NCBI GenBank assembly: GCA_018004935.1
Contig: JAGNBF010000014.1
Location: 1-32,466 of the forward strand
Source of the DNA: Chloroflexota bacterium
Lineage (GTDB): Bacteria; Chloroflexota; Anaerolineae; Promineifilales; Promineifilaceae
Reading direction: 5' to 3'
Length of the DNA stretch: 32,466 bases
The position numbers and the translations under genes were made by a program. Below, piece after piece: positions 1 to 32,466 of this stretch. Positions within the stretch are counted from its first letter, which is position 1, and each line of letters opens with the position of its first letter. Below the pieces are notes generated by a model, which was given only the letters and a program-made list of their open reading frames with translations, was not told the origin of the DNA and did no database searches.

Positions 1-314
1 AAATGAACCCATCCCCCTAGTGATTCCCCCCAGCGGGAAGGGGGAACCCTATCTACGGGCAAAATGGGGTGTAACACACCCCATTTTGCCCGCCTGGGAA
101 AACTCCCCGCCCCTGGGGGCGGGGGTGGGGGTGGGGGAAAAGCGGCTTGCTCACCAAAATGAACCCATTCCCCTAGTGATTCCCCCCAGCGGGAAGGGGG
201 AACCTAATCTATGGGCAAAATGGGGTGTAACACACCCCATTTTGCCCGCCTGGGATAACTCCCCGCTCCTGGGGGCGGGGGCGGGGGTGGGGGAAACTCC
301 GCGTAGGCAATCAC
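1..314. repeat. Tandem duplication of a ~156-bp unit (two copies, ~95% identical). Each unit contains a perfect 16-bp-stem hairpin (57-91 and 213-247) next to a G/C palindrome CCCCGCCCC-n-GGGGCGGGG. I call this 'family A'.
   Basis: Direct reading. 1-156 and 157-300 align base-for-base with a few substitutions. The hairpin is gggcaaaatggggtgt-aac-acaccccattttgccc. Confidence 0.85.
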
Positions 315-457
315 CCTATTGATACCAGGTTTGGTTTGCCGTTGACTCTGCTTCTCAGATAGAATGTCTTTATTAATGGTTGTTTTTACTCTCTGTGCCT
401 GACTGCCCACAGTATCCTTACATCTCGTATATGGCAGATCCTTGTTGAGCCAAACTT

Positions 458-1594
458 ATGTTGACACCTGAAGAAAAAACTTTGTTAGAGAAATATGTCG
501 AGAATCACACCCCAGATGCACCTTACTGGGCGCGGGTACAGATTGTTTTATTGGCAGATGCGGGATGGGCACAGGCGGATATTGCGGCAACGTTGCGGCT
601 AAGAATTACACCTGTACGTACCTGGCAACGAGCCTTTAACCGGCACCGGCTCACGGTGTTCCCGGAAACATTGTTTTTGGACACGCCCCTGTTTGCCCCT
701 ACGGAGGGAGTGGGCGAAGCAGGGCGCTGTTTGCTGGGAGAGATGCAACAGAAGGTGCAGGCCTATTGGCCCGCGGCCGCAACCTACACCGATCCTCTGG
801 CTGTACACGAATTCCGTAAAGCCATCCGTCAGTCATTTACCATTTACCGGGTCTTTGCCCCTTACTTTCTCCAGGGAACTCTGGCCCATTTCCGGCGGCG
901 CTGGCGTAAGGTGATGCGCCGTTTAGGGCGTTCGCGGGACATCACCATTTTTCTACAAGGACTAGAAACACACCTGGCCGGGGACACTTGGTCGCCGGTA
1001 GAGCGTGCCGGGTTAGAATGTTTGCGTGACGTATGGCAGGAACGGCTCGCGGCCGCAAACGCCACACTACAAACTTATCTAAACCAGGAGAAGGTGCGCC
1101 CTTTGTTAGAAAATTACGGGCAATTTCTGGCCCACGGCCAAACCAGCCTCATTTCCCCTCTGGATACGTCACCTGCTTACCAGATCCGTTTTGTGGCTCC
1201 CCGGCTCATTAACGACAAGGTTACAATGGTACGCCAACACCATCATCTCGTCACCGGGGGCACATTAGCTGAATTACATCAATTACGCATTGATTTTAAA
1301 GAACTCCGCTACACCCTGCGCTTTTTTGCGCCGCTCCTGGGGTTGCCCGTGTTATCTTGTCTGTATGTGCTAGAACAGATTCAAGATCATCTAGGCTGGC
1401 TGAATGATGCGCGTGTAGGGCTGGAACTACTGGATGAAATGCAGGGAGAAGAAACGAGTGCGGCCGCGAACCTCTATCGCGCCCTGCTTCAGGCCAGAGC
1501 CGATACATTACGCACCGAGTTCTTGCCCCTGTGGGAAAAATTTGACAGCCTGGCCTGGCGGCAAAACCTGGGCCTGGCCCTGGCACGTTTATAA
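458..1594 (+). CDS. CHAD-domain protein with an N-terminal helix-turn-helix-like segment
   Basis: 378-aa ORF. The N-terminus 'ARVQIVLLADAGWAQADIAATLRLRITPVRTWQRAFN' looks HTH-like. Two CHAD-like motifs are present: 'AVHEFRKAIRQSF' and 'LHQLRIDFKELRYTLRFFAPLLG', matching the conserved His/Arg pattern of CHAD domains. Confidence 0.55.
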   Translation: MLTPEEKTLLEKYVENHTPDAPYWARVQIVLLADAGWAQADIAATLRLRITPVRTWQRAFNRHRLTVFPETLFLDTPLFAPTEGVGEAGRCLLGEMQQKVQAYWPAAATYTDPLAVHEFRKAIRQSFTIYRVFAPYFLQGTLAHFRRRWRKVMRRLGRSRDITIFLQGLETHLAGDTWSPVERAGLECLRDVWQERLAAANATLQTYLNQEKVRPLLENYGQFLAHGQTSLISPLDTSPAYQIRFVAPRLINDKVTMVRQHHHLVTGGTLAELHQLRIDFKELRYTLRFFAPLLGLPVLSCLYVLEQIQDHLGWLNDARVGLELLDEMQGEETSAAANLYRALLQARADTLRTEFLPLWEKFDSLAWRQNLGLALARL

Positions 1595-1609
1595 TGGATG
1601 AGGTCAAAA

Positions 1610-1936
1610 ATGGGTTTTTTGCGCAAACTCTTCGGTCAAAGCAGTGAGAAAAAAGCCCCGGCAAATCCTGGCGACCCGGATGGGGTCTATTTTTATGTGC
1701 AATGTAACCGTTGCCACACCATCGTGCGGGTACGTGCTGACCGTAAGCATGATTTTAACCAGGAAGATGGGCAGTTAGTCTGGCATAAAGTCATCGTAGA
1801 TAACAAATGTTTTCAGCGGATTACCACTGTCGTTTATCTGGATAGTAATTTCAATGTCCTAAATGCAGAAATTCAGGGGGGGCAATACGTGACACCTGAA
1901 CTGTATGCGGCAACGCTGGCGAATGATCCAAAATAA
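1610..1936 (+). CDS. Small hypothetical protein containing CxxC. An alternative start lies at 1598.
   Basis: The ORF reaches the stop at 1936. The ATG at 1610 is preceded by GAGG 8 nt upstream. The protein carries 'CNRCHT...C' cysteines. I do not recognise a family. Confidence 0.4.
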   Translation: MGFLRKLFGQSSEKKAPANPGDPDGVYFYVQCNRCHTIVRVRADRKHDFNQEDGQLVWHKVIVDNKCFQRITTVVYLDSNFNVLNAEIQGGQYVTPELYAATLANDPK

Positions 1937-2640: not shown

Positions 2641-4473
2641 ATGAAACGAATACAACACCTTTCCCTTTTGTTGGTGCTTTTTTTGACAGCTTGTTTTGGG
2701 AAACAGGTCACGGTTGGGCCAATTCCTTTAGCAGTTACTCCGACCGCGGCCGCGACCCCTTTAGCAACAAGTTCGGCTGTCCCTGTGGAACCCGTGCCAA
2801 CTATTCCCCTCAACATCCCCTTTCCCACCTTTGCCCCGGATGTACCTCTTCTCCCCTCTCCCTCCAGTTCATTGGGCATTGTCGCTCAGGCAGGTGGGGC
2901 ATGGCGCCATGCCCTGATGCAGGAACCCTACGCCTATGTCTTGGGCGCACAAGAAATCATGAAGTTGAATGTGTCTATCTCTGCCCAGCCACATTGGGTG
3001 AGTCGCTATCGCTTGCCCCCGAATGATGAGTTGCATGAGATGTATCTGGTCGAGAATTGGTTGGCTGTATCGTTGGCTACCCCATCTTCTGTAAACGATT
3101 GTGATCAGGCCACCGTGGCTAAGGTATTCGACATCAGTCAGGCAAGAGAAATAAAAGAAGTCATCGGAAAGGAGAGTTGTTTCATATTGGATACGGCCTT
3201 AACGGCTAACCATTTTTACATTCTGTCGGCAGGTGAGGGCGATGCCCTACCCAGTCTGACAGTTTTTGATCTGGCGCAGGAAAATGGTTCGATTCCTGTG
3301 AATGAGATGACCTTGCCGGAATGGGAAACGGAATCGGGCCAGTTAGCCGGGGCTGTGCTCGCGGCCGCGGACAATCATCTCCTCATTGGGCAAACCACTC
3401 AAGATGGGAACATCCAACGTCTGGCCGAATATGCTCTGGATGATCCGGCCACCCCTCGGCTTGTCAACACCTACGAAGAGGGGACTGTTCCTGAAGATTG
3501 GCAACGCATGATTGAGCCAGCAGAGCTACCCTATTGTTGTTCTAACGTGACATGGGCGCGTAGTGAGGCCTATGATGTGGACATCTACCAGGGAATTCTT
3601 TACGTGATGGCGGCTGAAGGTTTACAGCTATGGCAACAACGAAACACATCTGCACTGCAAATGCTCGCCAGTTATCCTGAACTGGCCGGTATGACCACGA
3701 TGTTGGCATTGGGTGAGTACGTGATGTTGGTAGGGCCAAACGCGGCCGCGACCCAGCTCAGTTTCCACCTTTATCAACGGTCTGATCCCACCCAACCCTA
3801 CCCGATTGTCACCAGCGAACTGCCCTACCGGGGTGAATGGGTGGATTGGGTACAGGATGGACAATGGCTTTATGTGGCCGTGGCCCATGGCATTCAAATC
3901 ATCAGTCTGGAAAACCTGGTGGCACCGGTCGAAATTGCTTTTCTTTCCACCTATCCCGGTGTGCAGGCCTTCGCTGTCCACGGCGAAACCCTTGTTCTCC
4001 TCTGGCCGGATCGCCTGGAATTAGTCCAGCAAACGACTACCGATACCTGGACGACCATTTCCACCATTCCTGCTGGTGATTTGGCTTTCCAGACAAACCT
4101 GGAAGACATGAATTACGATGGGTTGTCAGCGGTGGCGGTTGTTGGAGAACATCTCATTGCGTTGAGCGATTTTATGGTAGCGGCCTTTGATATAAGCAAC
4201 CCCACAGAACCTGTTTTCATCAACCATACATATTTTGGTGCGACCGGCGGCCATTTCTTTCCGGCAGGTGAAGGGGGCGTTCTTTTGGTGGGTGAAGCCA
4301 GCGGGCCTGTTAACGAGGTGCTGGTTGGTTTGGATGTTGATGCGAACTTACTTTGGTATGAAAACTGGGCCAATAGACCTGTGCTAGAAGATTTGGTGTT
4401 AGGCGAGGATGGGTTGTTGTACGCGGCCGCGGGTGAAGATGGTCTGGTAATTCTTCAGCCTGTCGTCCCATGA
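2641..4473 (+). CDS. Lipoprotein, probably a beta-propeller with LVIVD-like repeats. Function unknown.
   Basis: The N-terminus 'MKRIQHLSLLLVLFLTAC' is a lipoprotein signal with a lipobox Cys. Recurrent motifs 'GILYVMAAEGLQLW', 'QWLYVAVAHGIQIISLENLVAP', 'HLIALSDFMVAAFDISNPTEP' and 'GLLYAAAGEDGLVILQ' resemble LVIVD-type propeller blades. Confidence 0.6.
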   Translation: MKRIQHLSLLLVLFLTACFGKQVTVGPIPLAVTPTAAATPLATSSAVPVEPVPTIPLNIPFPTFAPDVPLLPSPSSSLGIVAQAGGAWRHALMQEPYAYVLGAQEIMKLNVSISAQPHWVSRYRLPPNDELHEMYLVENWLAVSLATPSSVNDCDQATVAKVFDISQAREIKEVIGKESCFILDTALTANHFYILSAGEGDALPSLTVFDLAQENGSIPVNEMTLPEWETESGQLAGAVLAAADNHLLIGQTTQDGNIQRLAEYALDDPATPRLVNTYEEGTVPEDWQRMIEPAELPYCCSNVTWARSEAYDVDIYQGILYVMAAEGLQLWQQRNTSALQMLASYPELAGMTTMLALGEYVMLVGPNAAATQLSFHLYQRSDPTQPYPIVTSELPYRGEWVDWVQDGQWLYVAVAHGIQIISLENLVAPVEIAFLSTYPGVQAFAVHGETLVLLWPDRLELVQQTTTDTWTTISTIPAGDLAFQTNLEDMNYDGLSAVAVVGEHLIALSDFMVAAFDISNPTEPVFINHTYFGATGGHFFPAGEGGVLLVGEASGPVNEVLVGLDVDANLLWYENWANRPVLEDLVLGEDGLLYAAAGEDGLVILQPVVP

Positions 4474-5361: not shown

Positions 5362-7500
5362 TTATAAGGCGTGACGATTGCCCATGACACTGACATCGTA
5401 CCCAGGTAACTGAGCCACCGCCTGACGAAATGTGCCATCGTGCAGGAGATCAAGTAGCGGCCGCAACAAATCCCCTTCCCCATGTTCCGCTGGTATCACC
5501 AGGTCGTACCGCTCCTGCGCCAGGGGGACAAAATCCAGTTGCAGGGCACGCGCGGCCGCAACCACCCCCAACCCCATGTCCGCCGTACCGCTGGAAATCG
5601 CGGCCGCGACCGCCAGATGGGTGTACTCTTCCCGCTCATACCCGGTCACCATCTCCGGCACGATGCCCCGTTGGCCTAACTCATAATCCAACAACACCCG
5701 CGTCCCCGCCCCCCTCTGCCGATTTACTAACCGGATGTCCGGGCGGGCAGAGTCTTCCCACCCCTTGATCCCTTTCGGGTTGCCCGGTGGGATGATCCAG
5801 CCTTGCTCCCGCCCCACCAGGGTGATCAGCATCACCTTTTGCCCCGGCAGGTAACGGTGGATGTACGAAACGTTGTATTCACCCGTCGCCGGGTCGAGCA
5901 GGTGGGAGCCAGCCAGATGGGCTTCGCCGCGCCGTAAGGCCACCAGCCCCCCCAGACTACCCACATTAGCGGAGCTGAGTCTGCGGCCGCGTTCGGCCAA
6001 AAATTGGGCCATTAAATCCAGCGTCAAATCGTGACTGCCAATGCACAAAATCGTCCGCTCAATCTCCGGCACGGTGCGATACAGGTGAACCGTCACCTGC
6101 GCCCCCGCCTCTTCTCCTTCGCTAAACCGGGGAATCCGCACGATGCCATCCGCCCGCACCAACGAGGTAATCACCCCCGCCCCCCGGCTGATGGGCGTCG
6201 CCAACACCTTCTCCCCCACCTTACCCACCGCCACCCGCACAAAATCATCATCCCCGGTGTGAGAAACCACCTTTCGTGTCAGGGTCGCCGGGAGTGTGGG
6301 CGGCTCATAGGCCGGTTGCCCCTGCCAACGGGCCAGCAACGGCTCGACGAATATCTCCCCGGTCAGTGCGGCACTGACGGGATAGCCGGGCACGCCAATG
6401 ATGGGGAGCGAGTGGGCGAGTGGGCGAGTGGGCGAGTAGGCGACTGATTCACCGTGTCTCCGCGTCGCCGCGTCCCCCTCTCGCCGCGTCCCCGCGTCCC
6501 CGCGTCTCTCGATCATCCCTAAAATAACTGGATGCCCCGGCCTGACCGCCACCCCATGCACCAGGAGTTGGCCTAGCTCTTGCACGACGTGGGCGGTGTA
6601 ATCTTTGCTCCCGGCGGATGAACCAGCATTGACGAGGATGAGGTCGTGGGATGCGGCCGCGTCTTTCACCGCCGCCACAATCTTCTCCCACTCATCCGGC
6701 ACAATCGGCCAACGGGTGGGAATGCCCCCCCACTGCTCCACCTGCCCGGCCAGGACAAGGGAGTTGAATTCGATGATTTGGCCGGGGGAAAGGGCCGAGT
6801 GGTGAGTGCTGAGTGCTGAGTCAGGAGAGTGAGAGACTGAGAGACTGGAGACTGGAGACTGTTCGCTGTTCACTGTCAACTGTTCACGGCTAACTGCTTC
6901 CACACTGACCAACTCTGACCCGGTGGGGATGATGGCGACCCGCGGCCGCGTATAAACCGTGACCATCGCATGACCAGAACCGGCCAAGGCTCCCAGGTCA
7001 ACCGGGCGCAGTTTGTGGTTGGCGGGCAGAACCAGTTCCGTGGCGACCATATCCTCGCCCAGCGGCCGCACATGGGTCCAGGGGGCCAGGCTGGCCCGAA
7101 TCTCGATGGCCGATGCGCCGATTTTTTGGGTGTGTTCAATCATTACCACCGTATCAGCCCAGATGGGCAGGGGCGCACCGGTATTGACCGCCTGCGCCGG
7201 GCGCACCCCTGGGGCAATATCTTCCCACGCTTCGGCCAGGGTCAACTGGAGGGGATTTGTCTCGGTGGCCTCGTGGGTGTCACGGGCACGCAGGGCGTAG
7301 CCATCCATGGCACTGGCGTGGTAATGGGGGGCGGAAATTCTGGCCCACACCGGCTCGGCGGTTACGCGGCCCAACGCCTGGGTGAGCGGGATGGTTTCTG
7401 TGCCGAGGGGTTGCCAGAGAGAGGCAGATTGCAACGCGGCCGCGAACCGGCGCCACGCTTCGTCAAGGGGTAAATCTTCGAGGTAAATGTTTCGTTTCAT
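5362..7500 (-). CDS. moeA: Molybdopterin molybdenumtransferase (MoeA) fused to a C-terminal PBP-like (molybdate/tungstate-binding-type) domain. It carries two low-complexity insertions.
   Basis: MoeA motifs are 'ISAPHYHASAMDGYA', 'NTGAPLP...ADTVVMIEHT', 'PRVAIIPTGSELV' and 'LILVNAGSSAGSKDYT...VAVRPGHP'. The C-terminal ~300 aa look PBP-like. I chose the start at the 7500 ATG (MKRNIYLEDLPL). The ORF track extends the frame to 7569. Confidence 0.8.
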   Translation of the reverse strand: MKRNIYLEDLPLDEAWRRFAAALQSASLWQPLGTETIPLTQALGRVTAEPVWARISAPHYHASAMDGYALRARDTHEATETNPLQLTLAEAWEDIAPGVRPAQAVNTGAPLPIWADTVVMIEHTQKIGASAIEIRASLAPWTHVRPLGEDMVATELVLPANHKLRPVDLGALAGSGHAMVTVYTRPRVAIIPTGSELVSVEAVSREQLTVNSEQSPVSSLSVSHSPDSALSTHHSALSPGQIIEFNSLVLAGQVEQWGGIPTRWPIVPDEWEKIVAAVKDAAASHDLILVNAGSSAGSKDYTAHVVQELGQLLVHGVAVRPGHPVILGMIERRGDAGTRREGDAATRRHGESVAYSPTRPLAHSLPIIGVPGYPVSAALTGEIFVEPLLARWQGQPAYEPPTLPATLTRKVVSHTGDDDFVRVAVGKVGEKVLATPISRGAGVITSLVRADGIVRIPRFSEGEEAGAQVTVHLYRTVPEIERTILCIGSHDLTLDLMAQFLAERGRRLSSANVGSLGGLVALRRGEAHLAGSHLLDPATGEYNVSYIHRYLPGQKVMLITLVGREQGWIIPPGNPKGIKGWEDSARPDIRLVNRQRGAGTRVLLDYELGQRGIVPEMVTGYEREEYTHLAVAAAISSGTADMGLGVVAAARALQLDFVPLAQERYDLVIPAEHGEGDLLRPLLDLLHDGTFRQAVAQLPGYDVSVMGNRHAL
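6405..6510. repeat. Microsatellite-like repeats inside moeA: (gagtgggc)x3-4 followed by cgcgtcccc-type repeats
   Basis: Direct reading of 'gagtgggcgagtgggcgagtgggcgagtaggc' and 'cgcgtcgccgcgtccccctctcgccgcgtccccgcgtccccgcgtc'. On the minus strand they encode '...ERRGDAGTRREGDAATRRHGESVAYSPTRPLAHSLP...'. Confidence 0.8.
6797..6862. repeat. Microsatellite-like 7-nt repeats inside moeA: (gagtgct)x2, (gagactg)x3-4
   Basis: Direct reading. On the minus strand they encode the low-complexity segment 'SEQSPVSSLSVSHSPDSALSTHHSALSP', inserted between MoeA motifs 'IIPTGSELVSV' and 'GQIIEFNS'. Confidence 0.8.
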
Positions 7501-7758: not shown

Positions 7759-7786
7759 TTGACACGCGGCCGCAACCCCTTATAAT
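7759..7786 (+). promoter_or_regulatory. Near-consensus sigma70 promoter: TTGACA, 16-nt spacer, TATAAT
   Basis: cTTGACAcgcggccgcaaccccTTATAATtcc. It is oriented toward the thrS leader. Confidence 0.55.
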
Positions 7787-8066
7787 TCCTCCTACATAGA
7801 CAAAACGTTGACTGGGACATGTTGGGTCTGCCCCCCGTGTTAGAGAGTGATGGGCCATAGGCTGAAAGCCCTCACCACCAAGACAGAACCAATACCCCCC
7901 AGGAGTGATTCTCAGAACGTGAACAGTCAACAATAAATAGTTGATATTCCACCAATAAGAGAATCCGGGTTACTCCGTTATCAGTTGCAATGAGAGTAAA
8001 CAACACAGCTACACAAACCCCAGTGTTTCAACTCACTGTTCACTGCCAACGGCTCACTGTTTACTA

Positions 8067-8123
8067 AATTTGGGTGGAACCGCGAGACGCCATCGCCCCA
8101 ATACCGGGGTGGTGGCGTTTTTT
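8067..8123 (+). promoter_or_regulatory. T-box riboswitch-like element (T-box motif plus terminator hairpin and U-tract) in the thrS leader
   Basis: aatttGGGTGGAACCGCGag matches the T-box consensus AGGGUGGNACCGCG. The variable N is A, as in Thr-specific T-boxes that pair with a UCCA acceptor end. It is followed by gacgccatcgcccc...ggggtggtggcg and then TTTTTT. The Stem I / specifier region was not resolved. Confidence 0.45.
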
Positions 8124-10563: not shown

Positions 10564-10612
10564 AAAAAACAGGGGTAACGGCGGACTGTTGTTCGCCGTT
10601 ACCCCTGTTTTT
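10564..10612. terminator. Bidirectional rho-independent terminator between convergent thrS and csp
   Basis: aaaaaa-caggggtaacggcg-gactgttgtt-cgccgttacccctg-ttttt forms a 14-bp perfect stem flanked by an A-run and a T-run. Confidence 0.75.
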
Positions 10613-10881: not shown

Positions 10882-11187
10882 TACGATTGAGTTACCGATA
10901 CAAGAAAGAAAGAAGCTCGTCTGCGGCCGCAGGGTGTTGAGCTAGTTACCAATACTGTTGTTTACCATTACATCGTCAGAACTGCTAACAATCTAACATG
11001 AGGCCAGGGGGTAAGTCAATCGTTGCGAATGAGAATAAACGTATCCTTCACACATAGCGTGAGTAGAGCGTGAAGGGTTTACTCATAGCAATGGGGGGGT
11101 GTTTAGCCCTATTATCAGCGGTTAAATGATGGTTATCTGAGCAGAAAATATATTTCCAATATTGCTTTGTGAAAAAAATCACCTAGT

Positions 11188-18483: not shown

Positions 18484-21093
18484 ATGCAGTTTTTTGCTCG
18501 TTGGGGACGGTTCGCGGCCGCGATCCTTTTTGTTGCCTTTGGTGTCTGGGTTATTTCTATCCTGGCCACCCCTACCCGCACGACAACATCTGTTCAAGAC
18601 AGTGTCGCCGCTTTGGCTCCAGGCCGTTCTGGCGATGGTACTGGTGCTACCGATGAATTAGCCGCTCAAGACATTCAATTAGTTTATGGTGATCCGGTTC
18701 TACCGGCCAAGGTCAACCTGGCCGACGTGCCCAGCCGCGTTGCTGAGGTAGACACCCTATATCAACGTTATCTGAATGGCGACATCCGCGAAGTCAACGA
18801 AGGGCCAGTAGACGAAGCACTCTTCTTTGATCTGTTAGCCGAATCCGCCAAACAGGGGGTTGATCCTACTGTACAGAATTATGATGATAGCCTGGCCCCG
18901 TTGGGCATTTTAGGTGGGGGAGCCAGTTTTAAATCTATTGATTACACCCAATCCCAACAAGGTGTTCCGCCGGATCCAGATATTATGGTTGGGCGGGATC
19001 ATGTTGTGGTGGGAGTCAATACCAGCTTTCAGGTTTTTGATAAAAGCGGCAACAGCCTGTATGGCCCGGTACTGTATGCTGATTTTTGGGGCGCGAATTG
19101 TGGTACAGGCAGTAATGTGGTCATGTTTGACCCCTATTCTGTGTATGATGAAGAAAACAGCCGCTACGTCTTGGGTATTACCGCTTATGATCCTAATGTG
19201 AATGGGGGTGACAACGGTTGGGCCTGTATGGCCGTTTCACAAACGGATAGTGCCACTGGTAGCTGGTATCTCTACTCTTTTGATGGTAATCCTGGCACAG
19301 GAACCGATTATTTCTTTGACTACCCCCATATCGGGGTGGGGCAGGATGCGTTGTATATGGGGGCCAATATGTTCGGGGCGGCCTTTACCCGTAACCATGT
19401 CCTGGCCTTTCAAAAAGATGCTATGTATGCTGGCACTTCTGCCAGTTATGTGAAATTAAATGTTGCCTCCACTTACTTCACCTTACAACCGGCCAAACTG
19501 AAAGGGTTTGCCAGTGGTGGCTGGCCGACGAGTACCACGGAAGCGCATTATTTTGTGGATGCTAATTATGGCAATAACCAGACCGCGCTTCATGTATGGC
19601 GGTTCAGTAACCCTTGGGGCGCGGCCGCGATGACGTTGGCTGGTACCTTAACTGTGAACAGTTACAGCCTGCCGGTGAGCCAGCCGCAACTGGGTGGCAG
19701 TAATATTCAAGGCAATGACAACCGTCTGCTGGATGTGGAATATTGGGGCGGGTATCTGTGGGCCACGCATGCCGTAGGTTGTAATCCTGGCAGTGGTACC
19801 GTGAACTGTATTCGCTGGTATCAGATTGATGTTCGCGGGGCGACACCGACGCTGGTCCAACAAGGAACATTTAGCAGTGCCAGTAATTATCGTAGTTTCC
19901 CCGACCTGGCGGTGAACCGTTGTGGCGATATGTTGGTAGGTTATACCCGCACCAGCACCACAATGTATCCTGGTGTGTATGTGGCTGGGCGTGAAGCCGC
20001 CGATGCCGCCGGTACGCTGAAGAGTGAGACATTGGTAAAAGCCGGTGAGGATTTCTATACGGCGTATGATAGTGTGCCCCGCCGTTGGGGTGATTATACG
20101 GGAATGGCCCTGGACCCGGATGGTGTGACGTTCTGGTATGTGGGCGAGTATTCGCGGCCGCAGACTACCGCCCGTTGGTCTACCTGGGTTGGTTCCTTCA
20201 CCTGGTCTGGTTGTACTGTCGGTGGCCCCACCCCCACCCCCGTCGGGCCTACACCTACCAATACACCCATTGTCCCCACAGCTACTCCCACCAATACCCC
20301 CGTTCCCCCAACCGCTACACCCACCCCGACCGGTGGTAGCCAGATTTACGCTGGTTCCACTACCAGTGGTGCGGCTGGCGGCGTCGCCTTTGATAATGAC
20401 GACATCCTCATTTACAACACCAGTTCAGCCACCTGGAGCCTCTACTTTGATGGTTCAGATGTGGGCCTGGGCAGTGCCGATGTGGATGCATTTGAATTAA
20501 TGAGCGATGGCACTGTACTGATCAGCCTGGCGGCTTCCTTCTCCGTAACCGGTTTGGGTACAGTGGCCGATGCCGACATCGTGCGCTTTACGCCCACTTC
20601 CACGGGCAGTACCACCGCCGGAACTTTCTCCTGGTACTTTGATGGCTCAGATGTGGGGTTGACAACGACCAACGAAGACATTGACGCGGTGGAAATTCTG
20701 AGTGATGGCCGTATACTCGTTAGCACATTAGGCAACGTCAGTGTGACCGGCGCCTCTGGGGATGACAAAGACTTACTCGCCTTCACCCCCACGGCATTGG
20801 GAGCAACCACCAGCGGTACCTGGGCCTTATACTTTGATGCCTCAGATGTGGGTCTCACAGCGGCAAATGAGGATGTCAATGGTGTCTGGGTTGATAGTAA
20901 CGGAAACATTTACCTGACGACCATTGGTGCTTTTACCGTAACTGGGGCCAGTGGAGATGGCGCGGATATTTTCCGTTGTGTGCCAGGTTCTCTAGGTAGC
21001 ACCACCACTTGTACCTTTAGCCTCTACTGGGATGGTTCGGTGAATGGGTTTGCAGGTGAAGTCCTGGATTCGTTCGCCCTCGTACAACCGTAG
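18484..21093 (+). CDS. Large secreted or membrane-anchored protein. It has an N-terminal signal anchor, a ~480-aa beta-rich domain, a Pro/Thr linker and 3.5 C-terminal ~66-aa tandem repeats.
   Basis: The strong RBS GGAGGAGG lies 7 nt upstream of the ATG at 18484. The signal anchor is 'FAAAILFVAFGVWVISILA'. The linker is 'GGPTPTPVGPTPTNTPIVPTATPTNTPVPPTATPTPTGG'. The repeats carry 'GT(F/W)SLYFDGSDVGL...EDVDAVE..SDG.IL'. The track ORF begins at 18442. Confidence 0.7.
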   Translation: MQFFARWGRFAAAILFVAFGVWVISILATPTRTTTSVQDSVAALAPGRSGDGTGATDELAAQDIQLVYGDPVLPAKVNLADVPSRVAEVDTLYQRYLNGDIREVNEGPVDEALFFDLLAESAKQGVDPTVQNYDDSLAPLGILGGGASFKSIDYTQSQQGVPPDPDIMVGRDHVVVGVNTSFQVFDKSGNSLYGPVLYADFWGANCGTGSNVVMFDPYSVYDEENSRYVLGITAYDPNVNGGDNGWACMAVSQTDSATGSWYLYSFDGNPGTGTDYFFDYPHIGVGQDALYMGANMFGAAFTRNHVLAFQKDAMYAGTSASYVKLNVASTYFTLQPAKLKGFASGGWPTSTTEAHYFVDANYGNNQTALHVWRFSNPWGAAAMTLAGTLTVNSYSLPVSQPQLGGSNIQGNDNRLLDVEYWGGYLWATHAVGCNPGSGTVNCIRWYQIDVRGATPTLVQQGTFSSASNYRSFPDLAVNRCGDMLVGYTRTSTTMYPGVYVAGREAADAAGTLKSETLVKAGEDFYTAYDSVPRRWGDYTGMALDPDGVTFWYVGEYSRPQTTARWSTWVGSFTWSGCTVGGPTPTPVGPTPTNTPIVPTATPTNTPVPPTATPTPTGGSQIYAGSTTSGAAGGVAFDNDDILIYNTSSATWSLYFDGSDVGLGSADVDAFELMSDGTVLISLAASFSVTGLGTVADADIVRFTPTSTGSTTAGTFSWYFDGSDVGLTTTNEDIDAVEILSDGRILVSTLGNVSVTGASGDDKDLLAFTPTALGATTSGTWALYFDASDVGLTAANEDVNGVWVDSNGNIYLTTIGAFTVTGASGDGADIFRCVPGSLGSTTTCTFSLYWDGSVNGFAGEVLDSFALVQP

Positions 21094-21826: not shown

Positions 21827-23119
21827 ATGCAGGATTGGCGCATTTATCTGGTAAAAAGTACACGAACGGCCTTGCTTATCGCGGCCGCGATGATTGCCTT
21901 ATTGGCGATGGCCGGTTTCATTGCTGATGCCCTTGAATTGTTTCCCGTACCCCTCACCAGACCTGCGCTCCTCAGTGCTGGAGTAGGCTTTTTTACCCTG
22001 GGAACATCCTGGGTATTAATGCAACGCGCCGAAGCCAGTGGTTCAACGCGCCGCCTCACCTTTATCACCTTTGGCTTGTTAGCCCTTACGGTTATGTTGG
22101 CAACCATTCTTTTTGGCGGCATTGCCTCCGTATTACCCTATGCCTATACACCGATTATCCTGGCCGTAGCCATTCTGTTGGGGATGCGCCCCGCCTTGCA
22201 AATGGCCACAATATGCCTGATGCTCCATGGTATCACCACTGTAATGGAGATTTATCAGCTTTTTGAGCCAGTGCACATTTGGGGGGTCAGCATCCCTTTG
22301 TCTACCTATCCGGGGGTCGGTTACACAGTTCTGGCGATTGCCGCCATTATTTTTTACATGGTTGCCTGGGTAGCCGGAGCACTCTCTGACCTGCTCGCCG
22401 AGCAGAATCGGTCATTGGGGGCAGGGCAAGAATTGATGCGGCAGGAAATAATGAAAACACAATTCCTGAGCACTGTGGCTCATGAGTTGCGCACCCCCCT
22501 GACCTCGGCGCGGGGTTATTTGCACCTGGTTAATGCTGGCATGATCCCCCCAGAGAGAATGAAGGAGATTCTGTCCCGGATTCAGGAAAATGTGGAAACG
22601 ATTACCGGGCACGTCAATGACCTGATGTTTTTGCAGGAAGTAGAACTCGTTATTGAACGAAGCGAGCAAATTGATCTGGTGGAGTTAGCTCAGGATGTGT
22701 TAAATAGCTATAAACCCCGTAGTTTGAATACCGGTATCACCCTACAACTGGAAGCGAATAACCATGTGCCGGTCATCAAAGGGGATCAGAATGCGTTGGT
22801 ACGAGCAGTTACGGCCCTGGTAGATAATGCCGTGAAATACAGCCCCAACGGTGGGGATGTATTTATCCGGGTGGGGTCGGAAAACGGTCATGTGCATATG
22901 AGTATTGAAGATCATGGGATTGGAATTGAGACGAAAGATTTGCCCCATATTTTTGAACGGTTTTACCATGTTGATAAATCAACAGAACATATTTTTGGAG
23001 GCATGGGGGTGGGGTTGCCCATTGCCCAGCGGTTGATACGTGCACATGGGGGAGATATTGGCGTGTCGTCCCGCTCCGGGGAGGGGAGCACGTTTACGAT
23101 TTGGTTGCCGGTGAAGTGA
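21827..23119 (+). CDS. Sensor histidine kinase (6-TM N-terminal domain, HisKA, HATPase_c) with no adjacent response regulator
   Basis: The H-box is 'FLSTVAHELRTPLTSARGYL'. The N-box is 'LVDNAVKYS'. The G-boxes are 'DHGIGIE' and 'GGMGVGL'. Confidence 0.85.
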   Translation: MQDWRIYLVKSTRTALLIAAAMIALLAMAGFIADALELFPVPLTRPALLSAGVGFFTLGTSWVLMQRAEASGSTRRLTFITFGLLALTVMLATILFGGIASVLPYAYTPIILAVAILLGMRPALQMATICLMLHGITTVMEIYQLFEPVHIWGVSIPLSTYPGVGYTVLAIAAIIFYMVAWVAGALSDLLAEQNRSLGAGQELMRQEIMKTQFLSTVAHELRTPLTSARGYLHLVNAGMIPPERMKEILSRIQENVETITGHVNDLMFLQEVELVIERSEQIDLVELAQDVLNSYKPRSLNTGITLQLEANNHVPVIKGDQNALVRAVTALVDNAVKYSPNGGDVFIRVGSENGHVHMSIEDHGIGIETKDLPHIFERFYHVDKSTEHIFGGMGVGLPIAQRLIRAHGGDIGVSSRSGEGSTFTIWLPVK

Positions 23120-23152: not shown

Positions 23153-24133
23153 ATGAATAACGAAATGAATCCCCTGATGCCTTTTATTGTGCGTCAGGGG
23201 TTTTTGCTTTTGGATGGGGGACTGGCGACGGAGTTGGAGCGGCGCGGACATGATCTGAACGATCCGCTCTGGTCGGCGCGGCTGTTGGCCGATATGCCCC
23301 ACGCGATTGCCCAGTTGCATGAGGATTATCTGCAAGCCGGAGCAGATTGTCTGATTACGGCCAGTTATCAGGGCACGATTGCCGGATTCAGGCGGCGGGG
23401 GTTTAGTCAGAAGGAGGCGCTGGCCCTTTTGCGTCGGGCTGTAGAACTGGCTGTAACAACGCGAGACCGATTTTGGTCCCGTGCCGAGAACCAAAGGGGG
23501 CGGTTGCGGCCGCTTGTGGCCGCCAGTATTGGCCCATATGGGGCCTACCTGGCCAATGGTGCCGAATATACCGGGGATTATGATGTAGACGAAGCTGGAT
23601 TGGTGGCCTTTCACCAGGAGCGATGGTCTGTTCTGGCCCAGAGTGGGGCGGATCTGATGGCCTGTGAGACGATCCCCTCGGCGGTAGAAGCGCGAGCGTT
23701 GGCGCAGGTTATACCAACCACACCCACTATGCCGGTGTGGGTTAGTTTTAGTTGCCGGGATGGGGAGCATATTTGTGATGGAACATTATTGACGGAAGCG
23801 GTGCGGCCGCTACTTCTTTTGCCCCAGGTTGTTGCCCTCGGTGTGAACTGTACGGCCCCTTCAGCCATTCCCAGCCTGATTGCTCACCTGAAGGCGGTAA
23901 CGACTAAACCTATTGTGGTCTACCCTAATTCTGGAGAAACGTATGATGCGGCAAATCGGTGCTGGTTGGGGGTGACAAAGGCAGATGCGTTCGCGGCCGC
24001 GAGCCTGACCTGGTATCAAACAGGGGCACAGCTTATTGGCGGTTGTTGCCGTACTGGGCCAGAACATATTCAGGAGATGCGGGCAAAACTGAGTAAGGGA
24101 AAAGTAGCCTTTCCATCTGCTGAGAATAGGTGA
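23153..24133 (+). CDS. mmuM: Homocysteine S-methyltransferase (MmuM/BHMT family)
   Basis: 'LLLDGGLATELERRGHDLNDPLWSA', 'GADCLITASYQ' and a C-terminal 'GGCCRTGPEHI' zinc-binding motif. GAGGAG lies upstream of the ATG at 23153. Confidence 0.8.
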   Translation: MNNEMNPLMPFIVRQGFLLLDGGLATELERRGHDLNDPLWSARLLADMPHAIAQLHEDYLQAGADCLITASYQGTIAGFRRRGFSQKEALALLRRAVELAVTTRDRFWSRAENQRGRLRPLVAASIGPYGAYLANGAEYTGDYDVDEAGLVAFHQERWSVLAQSGADLMACETIPSAVEARALAQVIPTTPTMPVWVSFSCRDGEHICDGTLLTEAVRPLLLLPQVVALGVNCTAPSAIPSLIAHLKAVTTKPIVVYPNSGETYDAANRCWLGVTKADAFAAASLTWYQTGAQLIGGCCRTGPEHIQEMRAKLSKGKVAFPSAENR

Positions 24134-25729: not shown

Positions 25730-27811
25730 TTAAACTTTGTAGCTCACTTTCTCTTCTGTCCGGCGTAACCGCTCTCGGGCGGGAACTTTCTGGGTGCTTT
25801 GCTCCACGCGGGTGATTTCGATGCCCCGTAACTCCATAATTTGATCGCGGAGCGCGGCCGCTTTCTCAAACTCTAACGCCTGCGCGGCCGCTTTCATTTG
25901 CTTCTCCAACTCTTTAATCAACTTCACCAATTCATCCTTGGGCATTTCTGCGGGGGTGATGTAGGCCGAGCCAGATTCAGCAACAGATAAACCGGAAGAT
26001 GCGGCGTGGGTCGCGGCCGCGAGCTGATCGGTCAAATCCCGTATTGCCTTCACAATACTGCGTGGCTCGATATTGTGGGCCGTGTTATAGGCAATCTGCT
26101 TCTCCCGCCGATGTTTTGTTGTATCCATCGCTTTCCGCATCGAATCGGTGATTCGGTTGGCGTACATGATCACCTTGCCTTCGATATGCCGTGCCGCCCG
26201 GCCAATTGTCTGCGTCAGCGATGTTTCGGAGCGGAGAAAGCCTTCTTTATCCGCATCCAGAATGGCCACCAGTGATACTTCGGGCAGGTCTAACCCTTCA
26301 CGGAGCAGGTTAATCCCCACCACCACATCAAACACGCCTAGCCGCAAGTCGCGCAAGATTTCTGTCCGTTCCAGCGTATTAATCTCGGAATGGAGATAAT
26401 GCACCTTGATCCCCATTTCCAGTAGATAATCGGCTAAATCTTCGGCCATTCGTTTGGTCAGGGTTGTGACCAGCACCCGTTGCTTTTTGCTGATCCGTTG
26501 TTTGATTTCTCCCAGGAGATCATCTACCTGCCCTTTTACCGGACGCACTTCCAATTCCGGGTCTACCACACCAGTGGGCCGGATAACCTGCTCGGCAATG
26601 ACGGTGGATTGTTTGAGTTCATAAGGGCCAGGTGTTGCTGTTGTGAAGACAACCTGACGCACTCTTTGCCAGAACTCATCAATATTGAGGGGGCGGTTGT
26701 CCATCGCACTGGGCAGGCGGAACCCATAATCTACCAGGGTTTGTTTACGGCTCCGATCTCCCGCAAACATGCCCCCGATTTGGGGTACGGTCATGTGGCT
26801 TTCATCAATGACCAACAGGTAATCTGAAGGGAAATAATCCAGGAGTGTCCAGGGCGGTTCGCCAGGCCCACGCTGATCCAGATGGCGGCTGTAATTTTCG
26901 ATGCCGGTGGTGAACCCCATCTCGCGCAACATTTCCAGGTCATATTGCACGCGCTGTTCGATGCGTTGGGCTTCCAGGTATTGTTTTTTCTCTTTGAAAA
27001 AGGTAATTCGTCCCGTCAACTCCTCTTCGATGTCATTAATAGCCTGAGCCAGTTTGGCGTCATCCGTGATGAACTCGCGGGCGGGATAGATTTCCAGCCG
27101 GGCATGTTCAACCAGAACTTCGCCAGTGAGGGGATCGATTTCGGTGATGCGTTCGATGTCGTCGCCCCAGAACTCTACTCGGAAGGCAGTTTCGGTGTAG
27201 GCGGGCATCACTTCGAGGGTGTCACCGCGCACGCGGAAGCGGCCGCGTCGCAAATCCAGATCATTACGTTCATACTGGATGTCTACCAGGTGGCGAAGAA
27301 GGAGATCCCGACGGTAAACGCGGCCGCGTTCCATCTTTACGACCACCTTGCCCCACGCTTCTGGGTTGCCAATCCCATAAATACAGGACACCGAGGCCAC
27401 AATCACCACATCTTCCCGGCTAAGCAAGTTCGTCATCGCTTCTAGCCGCAGACGGTTGATCTCCTCATTGATGTTCGTTTCCTTCTCAATGTACAAATCA
27501 TGTTGCGGCACATAGGCTTCCGGCTGATAGTAATCATAGTAACTGACAAAGTAAGAAACAGCGTTTTTAGGGAAAAACTCCTTGAATTCCGCATACAACT
27601 GGGCCGCTAACGTTTTATTGTGAGCAATGATGAGGGTCGGCCGCCCTGTTGCGGCGATAAGATTGGCGACAGTGTAGGTTTTACCCGTGCCGGTAGCTCC
27701 GCGCAGGGTCTGATAGCGGTGGCCTTGACTCAAACTATCCAGTAAGGTTTTAATCGCTTCGGGCTGATCGCCCATAGGTTTGTAATCAGAAGCCAGGTGG
27801 AACTGAGCCAT
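25730..27811 (-). CDS. uvrB: Excinuclease ABC subunit B
   Basis: '[14 protein letters not shown]', Walker A '[14 protein letters not shown]', helicase motifs and the C-terminal UvrB/UvrC-interaction helix '[25 protein letters not shown]'. The start is MAQF at 27811, with GAGGTG upstream. Confidence 0.95.
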
Positions 27812-27937: not shown

Positions 27938-28653
27938 TGTCAGGTCTTGACGGAATTTAATCTTTTACAGGCCCTAAGTGGAAAACAAGGTAACGACTAA
28001 ACCCGTTGCCTGAGCTTGTCGAAGGCAAACGGGCTTCGACAAGCTCGGCCCTGGAGAGGGTTAGTTGTTACAAAACAAGAACGAAAGTTCGCTATTTTAC
28101 CACAAATCAGGAGTACAGGCAGGGCGATCACCTACTCGTCTAGCAATTCTCAATTCAACCAACGGTTATGGAGATTAAACAAATTGGGTTCTTGGGGATT
28201 TCATGGGGTACGGGCAACCCTTGTGGTTGCCCCACACGAGGCAGGCACAAGGCCAACCCCTACATTTAGCCCCACCCCGCGAATTCTGAAAGAACCCAAA
28301 TTATACTTACTTGAGTTTAGAGTTCAGAGCCAAAGCTAGAGGGTTTTCCAGAGTAATTTCCTCTTGCTCTCTCCTCTCGCTCTAAACTCCGGTACTTACC
28401 ACGGTCATAAAATGACATTTTGTTGGCGGCAACTGCTGAGTAAGCCTGGGCAGAAGACCCATCCCCCTACCCCTTTCCAAAGGGAAGGGGGGAAACCGCA
28501 CCAGAAATAGTTCCCCGCCCCTGGGGGCGGGGAACTTTTGAAGAGCCGTTTTTTGCAGGCATTCGCCCGCGAAAAACGGCCCCAATTGCCCTACATGCGG
28601 TGAGCACCCTGGTCGCTGAGTTTGGCAAAGGCGATACCTGTGGTTTGGTTGTT

Positions 28654-30168: not shown

Positions 30169-30208
30169 AGACCTGGTAAGCGCCTGACGCTTACCAGGTC
30201 TTTTTATT
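30169..30208 (+). terminator. Rho-independent terminator after the receiver gene
   Basis: agacctggtaagcg-cctga-cgcttaccaggtct-ttttattt forms a 14-bp perfect stem. Confidence 0.75.
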
Positions 30209-30337
30209 TCGCGCTATAGAATTGCAGAAATGATGGAGGCGGAGCCAACTGCCCCGTCAAGGGGTAAACGTAATTGTTCAGTTGCATCAATTCATTTGTA
30301 TAAACGAACCCTTAACACCTATACCAGAGGAACGACA

Positions 30338-31504
30338 ATGAGTTACCTTACCCACCTGGAATGTTCTTTTTGCCATAAGATGTATGATGCCGATCAACTA
30401 ATTCGGCTGTGCCCAGCCTGTGAACACCCCTTGCTGGCACGGTACGATTTGGTGCACGCGGCCGCGACGCTTGACCGTGACGAAATGGCCCATCGCCCTA
30501 ACACCCTCTGGCGCTACCATGAGATGCTCCCCATACGGGACCCCCATTACCACATCAGTCTAGGGGAAGGGGGAACACCCGTCCTTAAACTAGACAATCT
30601 GGGCCAGCTACTGGGGTTAAATCAGCTTTATCTTAAGGATGAAGGCCAGAACCCAACCGGCAGTTTTAAAGCGTTGGGGCTGTCGGTGGCCGTCAGTCGG
30701 GCCGTTGAACTGGGTGCCAGGGAGTTTGTCATTCCGACGGCGGGCAATGCGGGTGGGGCGCTGGCGGCTTATTGCGCCCGTGCCGGGGTAACTTCCCACG
30801 TGTTTATGCCGCAGGATGCCCCCCTGATCAACATTCTTGAGGTGCAGTTGATTGGGGCAGATTTGCGCCTGGTCAATGGGCTGATTAATGATGCCGGGCG
30901 GGAAGCGGCCGCGGAAGGGAGCGCGAAAGGGTGGTTTGATGTGTCCACGCTCAAGGAGCCGTACCGGGTAGAAGGGAAGAAAATAATGGGGTATGAGCTT
31001 GCGGCCGCGTTCAATTGGGAGCTACCGGATGTCATCATCTACCCCACTGGTGGGGGAACTGGTTTGATTGGCATGTGGAAGGCATTTGCCGAAATGGAAG
31101 CATTGGGGTGGATTGGCGCAAAGCGGCCGCGTATGGTCTCGGCGCAGGCCAGTGGCTGTGCCCCCGTGGTCAAGGCGTTCCACGATGGGGCCGAGGCTAC
31201 ATCCCCCTGGCCCAATGCCGCGACCATCGCTGGAGGGTTACGTGTGCCCGTCACCGTTGGGGGGCGGCTCATGCTCCAGGCATTACGGGATAGTCAGGGT
31301 ACAGGCGTGGCCGTACCGGATCATCGGCTCCAGGCGGGGCTGAGCCTGTTAGCGCAGAGAGAAGGGATCTTTGTGTCCTTGGAAGCGGCCGCGACCGTCG
31401 CCGCCCTGGAAGATTTGGTCAGCCAGGGTTGGGTTTACCCCGATGAGCGTATCCTCATTTTTAACACCGGCACAGGACTGAAACATCGGTTGATGCTTAT
31501 GTAA
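30338..31504 (+). CDS. thrC: Threonine synthase with an N-terminal zinc-ribbon
   Basis: 'CSFCHK...CPAC' is the zinc ribbon. The PLP lysine is in 'NPTGSFKALG'. 'GNAG' and 'TGGGTG' loops follow. AGAGG lies upstream of the ATG at 30338. The track ORF starts at 30230. Confidence 0.85.
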   Translation: MSYLTHLECSFCHKMYDADQLIRLCPACEHPLLARYDLVHAAATLDRDEMAHRPNTLWRYHEMLPIRDPHYHISLGEGGTPVLKLDNLGQLLGLNQLYLKDEGQNPTGSFKALGLSVAVSRAVELGAREFVIPTAGNAGGALAAYCARAGVTSHVFMPQDAPLINILEVQLIGADLRLVNGLINDAGREAAAEGSAKGWFDVSTLKEPYRVEGKKIMGYELAAAFNWELPDVIIYPTGGGTGLIGMWKAFAEMEALGWIGAKRPRMVSAQASGCAPVVKAFHDGAEATSPWPNAATIAGGLRVPVTVGGRLMLQALRDSQGTGVAVPDHRLQAGLSLLAQREGIFVSLEAAATVAALEDLVSQGWVYPDERILIFNTGTGLKHRLMLM

Positions 31505-32039
31505 ACATTATCGGGTGAGCAAACCCGCCCGGCGGTCAAACCGCCAGGCTTTCAGTAGTCGTGCAAAAATAACGTGGGTGGCACGGTCAGGCGACCGGCC
31601 ACAGCAAAGCGTTCAGTTAAATTCGGGTACCGTGTTGATTCGCCCATCCCCCTACGATTCCTGCCGAGAAGGGAGAAATACCAGGAGTGCCGGTTTTCGA
31701 GCGCACCGCCGCGCTCGAAAACCGGCACATTAAAAAGTTCCCCGCCTCTGGGGCAGGGTTAGGGGTGGGAGAAAATCCACGTATGCAATTGCCCCACAAA
31801 CCAGAGAAAATTACCGGGCAGGGGCTGTATTTTGTGTTAGAGTTGAGCAGAAAAAGCTGGTCAGCCAGGAAGCTATAGCTTTCAAGAAAAAGATTTTGGG
31901 TTTGTAGTAACCGCTTTAGCGGTCCCACGCTGGACGGCTAAAGCCGTTACTACCAACCAAAACCCCAAATGATTTTCTGAACATCTATAAGAAGCTGGTC
32001 AGCATTTCAGCCAGTCAGCACTTCGGCTGACAAGCCGAC

Positions 32040-32466
32040 CAGCTAAAATGCTGACAAACTATTCTTACAGGAGTTCCCCATGGATGGTATGCACACCAAG
32101 ATGGATGAAAATAACGCCACCATTTTTCATTCCTATCCGTGTTTTTTCCTATCCGTGTTTCCACCATCAGTGGCAATTTTCTCAGGAGTTCCCCATGTGC
32201 CTTTGGCACACCAAGAGGGATGAAAATCTGTAGGACGATTTGGTAAATCGTCCGGGCGATTTGCCAAATCGCCCTACATTTCGTAGGAGTTCCCCATGGG
32301 CCTATGGCACACCAAGATGGATGAAAATAACGCCACCATTTTTCATTCCTATCCGTGTTTTTTCCTATCCGTGTTTCCACCATCAGTGGCAATTTTCTCA
32401 GGAGTTCCCCATGTGCCTTTGGCACACCAAGAGGGATGAAAATCTGTAGGACGATTTGGTAAATCG
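32040..32466. repeat. Higher-order tandem array. It consists of 43-bp units (ggagttccccatgNgcctNtggcacaccaagaNggatgaaaat) alternating with two different inserts of 72 and 58 bp. Each insert occurs twice, so the array is a ~216-bp super-unit duplicated. It runs off the window end.
   Basis: Direct reading. Units lie at 32069, 32184, 32285 and 32400. Insert 1 is identical at 32112-32183 and 32328-32399. Insert 2 (32227-32284 and 32443-end) is a near-perfect ~50-bp palindrome made of two 9-bp-stem hairpins, ggacgattt-ggt-aaatcgtcc and gggcgattt-gcc-aaatcgccc. Confidence 0.85.

Follow-up and report, generated by a model that had tools for sequence, protein, structure and literature searches.

The DNA window considered here comprises 32,466 bases (positions 1 to 32,466 of contig JAGNBF010000014.1, assembly GCA_018004935.1) with a G+C content of 52%, and its subject is a palindromic octamer, GCGGCCGC, which recurs in moeA, uvrB and most of the other genes named in Table 1. 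An exact search finds 46 copies. A first-pass annotation of the same letters had arrived at about 46 by eye, with coordinates that each deviate by 0-8 nt from the true starts (25877 instead of 25884, 30466 instead of 30458). Genes were taken as open reading frames (ORFs) checked against Pfam and then against the gene calls in public records of this DNA; 44 of the copies (96%) are located within genes, and two are located in spacers, one between moeA and thrS and one upstream of csp. The source of the window is an uncultured species of Promineifilaceae that is close to Ca. Trichofilum: its UvrB is 90-91% identical to those of Ca. Trichofilum aggregatum (L001; metagenome-assembled genome JADJUV01) and Anaerolineae bacterium CHL7 (L002), and the NCBI taxonomy places Trichofilum in Chloroflexota, Ardenticatenia, Promineifilales, Promineifilaceae. 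Relatives were sampled at two genes, with 80 loci of uvrB (species-representative genomes) and 80 of moeA (metagenomes); loci and strains are referred to below by numbers with the prefix L.

Table 1. The 46 copies of GCGGCCGC in the window. Positions come from the exact search and gene context from the ORF and frame analysis; AAA, RP and GR stand for Ala-Ala-Ala, Arg-Pro and Gly-Arg.
Position	Strand	Context	Read as	Relatives, strains and remarks
773..780	.	CHAD gene	AAA	
1049..1056	.	CHAD gene	AAA	
1460..1467	.	CHAD gene	AAA	
2108..2115	.	PNPOx gene	AAA	
2204..2211	.	PNPOx gene	AAA	
2398..2405	.	PNPOx gene	RP	
2746..2753	.	610-aa ORF	AAA	ACGGCCGC in strain L081
3361..3368	.	610-aa ORF	AAA	kept in L087
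3742..3749	.	610-aa ORF	AAA	kept in L087
4423..4430	.	610-aa ORF	AAA	kept in L087
4589..4596	.	Uma2 gene	RP	
5457..5464	.	moeA	RP	kept in L087
5552..5559	.	moeA	AAA	kept in L087
5600..5607	.	moeA	AAA	kept in L087
5983..5990	.	moeA	GR	kept in L087
6653..6660	.	moeA	AAA	GCGGCCAC in L087
6942..6949	.	moeA	RP	kept in L087
7062..7069	.	moeA	RP	kept in L087
7436..7443	.	moeA	AAA	kept in L087
7766..7773	.	moeA-thrS spacer		public records call no gene there
10923..10930	.	intergenic, upstream of csp		
11897..11904	.	Band_7 gene	AAA	
13396..13403	.	Band_7 gene	RP	
15418..15425	.	dynamin-like GTPase gene	AAA	
16122..16129	.	dynamin-like GTPase gene	GR	
18514..18521	.	883-aa ORF	AAA	
19621..19628	.	883-aa ORF	AAA	
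20154..20161	.	883-aa ORF	RP	
21881..21888	.	His kinase gene	AAA	
23506..23513	.	homocysteine S-methyltransferase gene	RP	
23803..23810	.	homocysteine S-methyltransferase gene	RP	
23993..24000	.	homocysteine S-methyltransferase gene	AAA	
24439..24446	.	padR gene	RP	
25854..25861	.	uvrB	AAA	kept in L001 and L002
25884..25891	.	uvrB	AAA	kept in L001; GCCGCCGC in L002
26013..26020	.	uvrB	AAA	kept in L001 and L002
27239..27246	.	uvrB	GR	kept in L001 and L002
27320..27327	.	uvrB	GR	kept in L001 and L002
28868..28875	.	lysR gene	AAA	
29102..29109	.	lysR gene	AAA	
29480..29487	.	lysR gene	AAA	
30458..30465	.	PALP gene	AAA	
30905..30912	.	PALP gene	AAA	
31001..31008	.	PALP gene	AAA	
31123..31130	.	PALP gene	RP	
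31385..31392	.	PALP gene	AAA	

The number of copies far exceeds expectation. In 100 dinucleotide-preserving shuffles of the window, GCGGCCGC occurred 0.84 times on average and at most three times, which corresponds to a ~55-fold enrichment and bears out the earlier estimate of about one chance copy and a 50-100-fold excess. Markov models predict 0.72 (order 0), 0.80 (order 1), 1.2 (order 2) and 2.6 copies (order 3), and the ratio of observed to expected copies (O/E) is 55-64 when composition or dinucleotides are considered and 18 for the model of order 3. The expectation of order 5, 13.7 copies, is contaminated by the motif itself, since models of higher order approach the observed count by learning their parameters from it. 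The runner-up among the palindromic 8-mers of the window has three copies. Nearly all hexamers that make up the word (46 of 51 CGGCCG, 46 of 52 GCGGCC) reside inside GCGGCCGC, and the 8-mer is therefore the unit in this genome. Its density, 1.42 per kb, is similar outside the window: 17-18 further copies are present in 16.5 kb of flanks from the same genome, with 10-11 in the 7 kb past the 3' end and seven in the 9.5 kb past the 5' end.

The immediate surroundings of the copies show a limited preference. According to the first-pass annotation, most copies are extended to CGCGGCCGCG or GCGGCCGCAA, which holds in part: the full palindromic 10-mer CGCGGCCGCG is found at 19 of 46 copies (41%), a C before or a G after the octamer at 39, and the AA/TT form at 10. 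Positions -1/+1 are C/G in 63% of the sites and almost never G/C, positions -4/+4 are G/C in 55%, and past ~4 nt on either side the sites are at background level and share no flank. The distances between sites are Poisson-like (coefficient of variation 1.00), and the counts per 2 kb have a variance-to-mean ratio of 1.15. The longest gap, 3,157 nt, spans thrS and csp; it had been correctly pointed out as free of copies (7766-10921), but a gap of this length or longer arises in 37% of random placements and therefore needs no explanation.

All three reading frames are used by GCGGCCGC. Within genes, the word is read 29 times as GCG-GCC-GCN (Ala-Ala-Ala), 11 times as xxG-CGG-CCG-Cxx (Arg-Pro) and four times as xGC-GGC-CGC (Gly-Arg); a fifth Gly-Arg copy, at 7766, is inside an ORF that the public gene calls do not support. 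The initial description of the copies as Ala-Ala-Ala or Arg-Pro is correct for these 29 and 11, and it omits the Gly-Arg and intergenic ones. Since 29 of the 46 copies read Ala-Ala-Ala, and no Ala codon in the window is used more often than GCC and GCG, the excess could in principle be a side effect of amino acid, codon and dinucleotide bias in Ala-rich proteins with a preference for GCG and GCC. This explanation is very improbable. When synonymous codons were shuffled such that proteins and codon usage were kept, 4.1 +/- 1.9 copies were obtained (maximum 12 in 500 shuffles), and shuffling of codon order gave 1.4, compared to 45 in those ORFs. The other two frames account for 15-16 copies, and a further 1-2 lie between genes. 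The Ala-Ala-Ala tripeptides are without exception encoded by the octamer (29 of 29, as GCG-GCC-GCN), where Ala codon usage predicts ~12%, and the tripeptide itself is ~4-fold over-represented (29 observed, 7.1 expected from the Ala content). Moreover, sister lineages enrich ACGGCCGT or TCGGCCGA instead, which again use all three frames (ACGGCCGT as T-A-V, G-R and R-P; TCGGCCGA as S-A-E/D and others). Coding bias is refuted by the codon shuffles and by these other dialects, and the question raised at the outset, whether codon and dinucleotide bias account for the copies, is answered in the negative by all three types of shuffles.

Where the window has AAA at a uvrB site, those relatives that do not have the octamer encode tripeptides such as QAA, AAV or AEQ. 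From this, the codon shuffles, and the encoding and excess of AAA, it follows that the DNA word drives codon choice and, at tolerant positions, amino acid choice. Neither composition nor codon use accounts for the excess of GCGGCCGC; rather, a process at the DNA level shapes the proteins, and the word overrides the choice of synonymous codons and even of amino acids.

The same DNA is found in three NCBI and two ENA assemblies at 99.2-99.97% identity; the NCBI assemblies are GCA_018004095.1 (99.97%), GCA_963853475.1 (a 4.58 Mb contig, CAWKWR010000010.1) and GCA_037045095.1. In total, more than 20 assemblies contain the species. GCGGCCGC is a common cloning site, which might suggest NotI linkers or the carry-over of adaptors, but the sites are the same in all these assemblies of the species and recur at orthologous positions in other species. 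Because the same DNA was obtained in independent assemblies, an assembly or cloning artefact is excluded, and the probability that remains for it is negligible.

In sister species, the word is kept at orthologous positions above background. The comparisons are limited because synteny with the window is limited to uvrB in L001 and L002, and to moeA and the gene of a 610-aa protein in L087. In uvrB, all five sites are kept in L001 (83% nucleotide identity; fraction of identical 8-mers in the background 0.25) and four of five in L002 (81%; 0.18). In L087, seven of eight sites are kept in moeA (84%; 0.37) and three of the three alignable ones in the 610-aa gene (67%; 0.10). When only amino-acid-identical windows are considered, 19 of 20 octamers are base-identical compared to 34.9% of the controls (binomial P ~3e-8), the two uvrB comparisons in this test not being independent. 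A pair of relatives with the ACGGCCGT word, referred to as A-type in contrast to the G-type GCGGCCGC, behaves similarly: L012 and L013 (13.7 kb aligned, 81% identity) share 17 ACGGCCGT sites, with six and two unshared, and 17 of 25 retained sites compare to a background of 25.5% identical 8-mers. Unshared sites differ by point substitutions, not by indels or changes of length. The substitutions are found mainly at the outer positions, with four of six one-base differences in the A-type pair at positions 1/8 and six of seven changed bases in the G-type at positions 1, 2, 7 or 8.

This mode of change also bears on a possible origin of the copies from a small mobile element similar to repetitive extragenic palindromic (REP) elements or miniature inverted-repeat transposable elements (MITEs), either as its footprints or ends or as target-site duplications. 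A dispersed intergenic repeat family is indeed present in the window, but this family is free of GCGGCCGC, while the octamers are without a common flank, reside in frame within conserved genes and differ between orthologues by substitution at constant length. A classification as REP- or MITE-type repeat was rejected in view of the missing shared flank and the intragenic copies, and a mobile origin is hardly conceivable. For practical purposes, codon bias, mobile elements and artefact can all be dismissed.

Across the clade, the evolutionary unit is the CGGCCG core in combination with a lineage-specific outer base (G..C, A..T, T..A or none). In the closest relatives, GCGGCCGC reaches densities of 1.7 (L001), 1.1 (L002) and 2.3 per kb (L087) in flanks that are mutually unlinked. 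In relatives at 67-75% UvrB identity, CGGCCG is 3-12-fold over the first-order Markov expectation and the flanks differ: ACGGCCGT is dominant in L007, L010, L012, L013, L015, L018, L025, L026, L089 and L093-L095, TCGGCCGA is dominant in L028, and CGGCCG is enriched without an outer preference in L016, L019, L088 and L091. In a neighbour-joining tree of UvrB, all enriched loci fall into one clade, in which the G-type is monophyletic; the sub-clade of L003 and L009 is without CGGCCG enrichment. The remaining Anaerolineae have a CGGCCG O/E of ~1.5 or less, several of them with zero copies. CGGCCG is the only 6-bp palindrome that is recurrently enriched in the 160 loci, and no significant enrichment is seen for CAATTG/CCAATTGG and CGCGCGCG, the other palindromes considered as possibly iterated in relatives. 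In pooled G-type DNA (78 kb: the window, the L081 flank, L001 and L002), CGGCCG is 4-fold enriched, unlike the target of a NotI/EagI-like restriction-modification system with an active endonuclease, which is avoided in its host. The other GC-rich 6-bp palindromes of the same 78 kb are avoided, with O/E values of 0 (CTGCAG), 0.09 (GGGCCC, GCGCGC) and 0.15 (GGCGCC, CCCGGG), suggesting heavy restriction-modification pressure in the lineage. The data show a clade-heritable process at the DNA level by which substitutions generate or maintain one specific palindrome.

As a separate observation, the outgroup loci L038, L052, L058, L076, L128, L129, L138, L140, L142 and L143 contain no CGGCCG in 4-23 kb, where 1-24 copies are expected in those scored (L038, L052, L058, L076). 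This is a pattern of avoidance, as expected with an EagI-type restriction system.

The best-studied word of this type is the highly iterated palindrome HIP1, GCGATCGC, known since 1995, whose origin and function are debated in terms of methylation-directed repair, chromosome structure and DNA uptake. To our knowledge, HIP1 and its relatives have been described in cyanobacteria only, and the evidence stems from one phylum and essentially one word. GCGGCCGC resembles HIP1 in several respects: (i) both are 8-bp GC-rich palindromes of the form GC-NNNN-GC; (ii) both have a CG....CG 6-bp core (CGGCCG vs CGATCG) around a palindromic 4-mer that is a common methylation target (GGCC vs GATC); (iii) both occur at ~1-2 copies per kb, in tens-fold excess and in all frames, and spread by substitution, not transposition; (iv) both have lineage-specific palindromic extensions to 10 nt; (v) both are retained above the neutral level (for HIP1, see PMC5861425) and deviate mainly at the outer positions (Elhai, PMC4390886 section 2.6). 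The first-pass annotation placed the density of ~1.4 per kb in the range of HIP1, and the 1.3-1.4 per kb found here indeed lie within the published 0.5-2.5 copies per kb (Elhai 2015, PMC4390886). With a GC-rich palindrome that is over-represented, dispersed, and gained and lost by substitution with retention, GCGGCCGC has the hallmarks of the HIP class (Robinson 1995, Elhai 2015); its designation as HIP-like is confirmed by over-representation, density, dispersal in all frames, partial 10-nt extension and orthologous retention. It is not HIP1 proper, as the sequence differs, the phylum is Chloroflexota (Promineifilales) and the window contains zero GCGATCGC. One-base variants, which are common around HIP1, are not enriched in the case of GCGGCCGC.

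Alternate HIPs in cyanobacteria comprise GGGATCCC, TCGATCGA, GGCGCC, rCCGGy and GCsGC (Elhai 2015, PMC4390886) as well as CAGGCCTG, which is iterated in Synechococcus PCC 6312 (2026 cyanobacterial survey) and shares the GGCC centre with GCGGCCGC. As GCGGCCGC is not among the alternates in either source, the proposal of a distinct HIP type stands. Similar to the alternate HIPs, the core is kept while the outer bases switch, the relation of GCGATCGC to TCGATCGA mirroring that of GCGGCCGC to ACGGCCGT/TCGGCCGA, and some lineages enrich a 6-mer only. In contrast, the published words are without CGGCCG and all cyanobacterial, whereas here three outer-base states and a state of no preference occur inside one clade. 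In open-access papers and bioRxiv, no description of GCGGCCGC, CGGCCG or ACGGCCGT as iterated was found, whether for Chloroflexota or for other organisms. An undescribed, independently evolved HIP system outside cyanobacteria is the probable interpretation: a clade of Chloroflexota (Promineifilales / Ardenticatenia-type Anaerolineae) would enrich CGGCCG, its sub-lineages would have changed to different outer base pairs (GCGGCCGC, ACGGCCGT, TCGGCCGA, none), and at least one would have lost the enrichment.

A mechanistic precedent is the Dcm/Vsr system of E. coli (CCWGG), in which very-short-patch (VSP) repair corrects T:G mismatches in favour of the methylatable sequence, to the advantage of the target of the cytosine methyltransferase; the word bias in E. 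coli is modest, unlike the ~55-fold enrichment here. By analogy with HIP1 and Dcm/Vsr, a methylation-coupled HIP model can be formulated for GCGGCCGC, whose chances we regard as evenly balanced. The octamer would be a genome-wide word that is made and kept by point substitution wherever Ala-Ala-Ala, Arg-Pro or Gly-Arg is acceptable in the encoded protein. CGGCCG, or the nested GGCC, may be marked by an orphan cytosine methyltransferase common to the clade, and methylation-coupled short-patch or mismatch repair would resolve near-cognate mismatches towards the methylatable word. This biased conversion could raise the number of sites to ~1-2 per kb. The outer base, in this view, would follow from the sequence preference of a second enzyme or of the repair nuclease, and a change in that specificity would make it switch. 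A methyltransferase is favoured in this model because the hexamer that is conserved is typical of type II recognition sites, because the bare hexamer is enriched in some lineages, and because the outer base acts as a switchable specificity while CGGCCG is the sole GC-rich palindrome that is not avoided. The HIP1 core is methylated as m5CGATCG by M.Ssp6803I and its GATC centre by a Dam-like enzyme, and GGCC is methylated as GGm4CC in Synechocystis (PMC6105098). CGGCCG-specific cytosine methylation is listed for environmental metagenome bins (Nanomotif supplement), and dcm-type enzymes have been predicted for CGGCCG (PMC6471742).

Several observations weigh against the methylation-coupled model. 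All ORFs of the window were searched with Pfam, NCBIfam and PADLOC, and six-frame ORFs of 170 sequences (2.1 Mb) were searched with motif regular expressions and phmmer, the queries being M.HhaI, M.HaeIII and the Vsr of E. coli. These searches yielded no DNA methyltransferase or Vsr-like gene in the window, its 16.5 kb of flanks or the loci of the enriched clade; in the DNA of this clade that was searched, there is accordingly no cognate counterpart of M.Ssp6803I and the Dam-like enzyme of HIP1, nor of the C5-methyltransferase and Vsr of E. coli. The sole match in the 2.1 Mb is in outgroup locus L140 (1704-3286), where a gene for a Vsr-like endonuclease comes directly after that of an M.HhaI-like C5 methyltransferase (229 bits). 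L140 has 312 GCGC in 14.7 kb and no word above the dinucleotide expectation; its CGCGCGCG count is due to the very high CpG content and not to a HIP. Furthermore, the one-base neighbours of octamer and core in the 78 kb sample, including the products of C-to-T deamination, are approximately at the outgroup level, neither clearly depleted nor enriched, so that the classic footprint of VSP repair is not seen in this sample. Among the strains (six assemblies, 99.2-99.97% identity), only one of 176 variable columns falls into a site (the L081 variant at 2746), which is too few to polarise gains and losses, so that no direction of change emerges. Finally, the retention at orthologous sites fits selection for function equally well.

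Such a function could be that of a signal read by a protein, for example as a tag for DNA uptake or self-recognition, or as a recombination or nucleoid site, with methylation absent or secondary. We consider selection of this kind possible but doubtful. Retention well above background, synonymous positions included, is what a selected signal would show, and a density near 1 per kb, lineage dialects and tolerance within genes are also seen for the DNA uptake sequences of Neisseria (DUS) and the uptake signal sequences of Pasteurellaceae (USS). HIP1 itself has been proposed as an uptake sequence (2026 preprint), and methylated HIP1 raises the transformation efficiency of Synechococcus PCC 7002 (bioRxiv 10.1101/2024.09.10.611283). 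In this context, the switch of the outer base between lineages could reflect co-evolution with a receptor. However, the known uptake sequences, which are 9-12 nt long and often paired in terminators, are non-palindromic, as is Chi, whereas GCGGCCGC is a perfect palindrome that is located inside genes in 44 of 46 copies. At the scale of the window, the spacing is Poisson-like and without regularity, the window revealed no gene for competence or for a reader protein, and the lineages that enrich only the core without an outer preference fit the specificity of an enzyme better than a fixed tag. A selected signal is compatible with the methylation-coupled model; the two are not exclusive.

Further features of the region concern repeats and possible defence or repair genes. 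The dispersed intergenic repeat family (1-296, 14645-15115, 10396-10496, 28457-28584 and 31643-31778) is rich in G and C runs, has internal hairpins (e.g., GGGCAAAATGGGGTGTAACACACCCCATTTTGCCC) and consists of tandem arrays with periods of 156 and 145/106 nt in addition to single partial copies; it resembles REP elements or MITEs. The array at the 3' end of the window (32069-32466) consists of a 216-nt tandem repeat unrelated to this family, and both kinds of repeats contain zero GCGGCCGC. In strain GCA_037045095.1 (L083, 4740-6101), a DDE transposase insertion is located upstream of the window region, which the other strains do not have; it contains zero GCGGCCGC compared to ~1.7 expected, a difference that is not significant. 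In the same assembly, Uma2 and moeA are called as split ORFs, suggesting frameshifts or assembly errors. The Uma2/DUF820 gene (4476-5168, minus strand; Pfam PF05685, PADLOC PDC-S03) is annotated as 'putative restriction endonuclease'; it is absent between moeA and the 610-aa gene in L087 and therefore represents a lineage-specific insertion or loss. An SPFH/Band_7 gene (11576-13426, plus strand) and the gene of a dynamin-like GTPase (15147-16880, minus strand) are 1.7 kb apart and enclose the gene of a Crp-type regulator. The match of the GTPase to the PADLOC LeoA/LeoBC models covers the entire protein (E 8e-25), and Band_7 protein and GTPase may form a defence-type or membrane-remodelling module. 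The ORFs at 2641-4473 (plus strand, 610 aa) and 18442-21093 (plus strand, 883 aa) have no match in Pfam, NCBIfam and PADLOC, and the former is conserved in L087 at 67% nucleotide identity. The public start codon of the PALP gene differs from the ORF start used in the gene calls. A PD-(D/E)xK nuclease of 206 aa is encoded in the same genome ~5.5-6.1 kb past the 3' end of the window (L167, 1346-1966); its match to the C-terminal domain of NucS is weak, with 50 bits compared to a family cut-off of 216 bits, and its assignment as a genuine NucS mismatch endonuclease was rejected, as was its use as evidence of repair by the NucS pathway.

The octamer is apparently one dialect of a clade-wide CGGCCG-core HIP system that seems to be unreported. 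Because sequence and phylum differ from those of HIP1, it offers an independent system for studying how iterated repeats arise. The nested architecture of 4-mer, CG....CG 6-mer and 8-mer, the several outer-base dialects within one clade and the lineages without the trait amount to a natural experiment, in which genes that co-vary with enrichment and dialect state are candidates for the HIP machinery. On the practical side, these filaments are abundant in wastewater and soil, and GCGGCCGC provides a strong taxon-specific signature by which they can be binned and checked for contamination; digestion by NotI or EagI, or its blockage, is predicted to be highly diagnostic. The fact that all AAA tripeptides of the region are copies of the word indicates that a drive at the DNA level can rewrite protein sequence. 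If the interpretation as a clade-wide system is true, phylogenetic profiling would make it possible to find the methyltransferase or nuclease that tracks the dialect switches.

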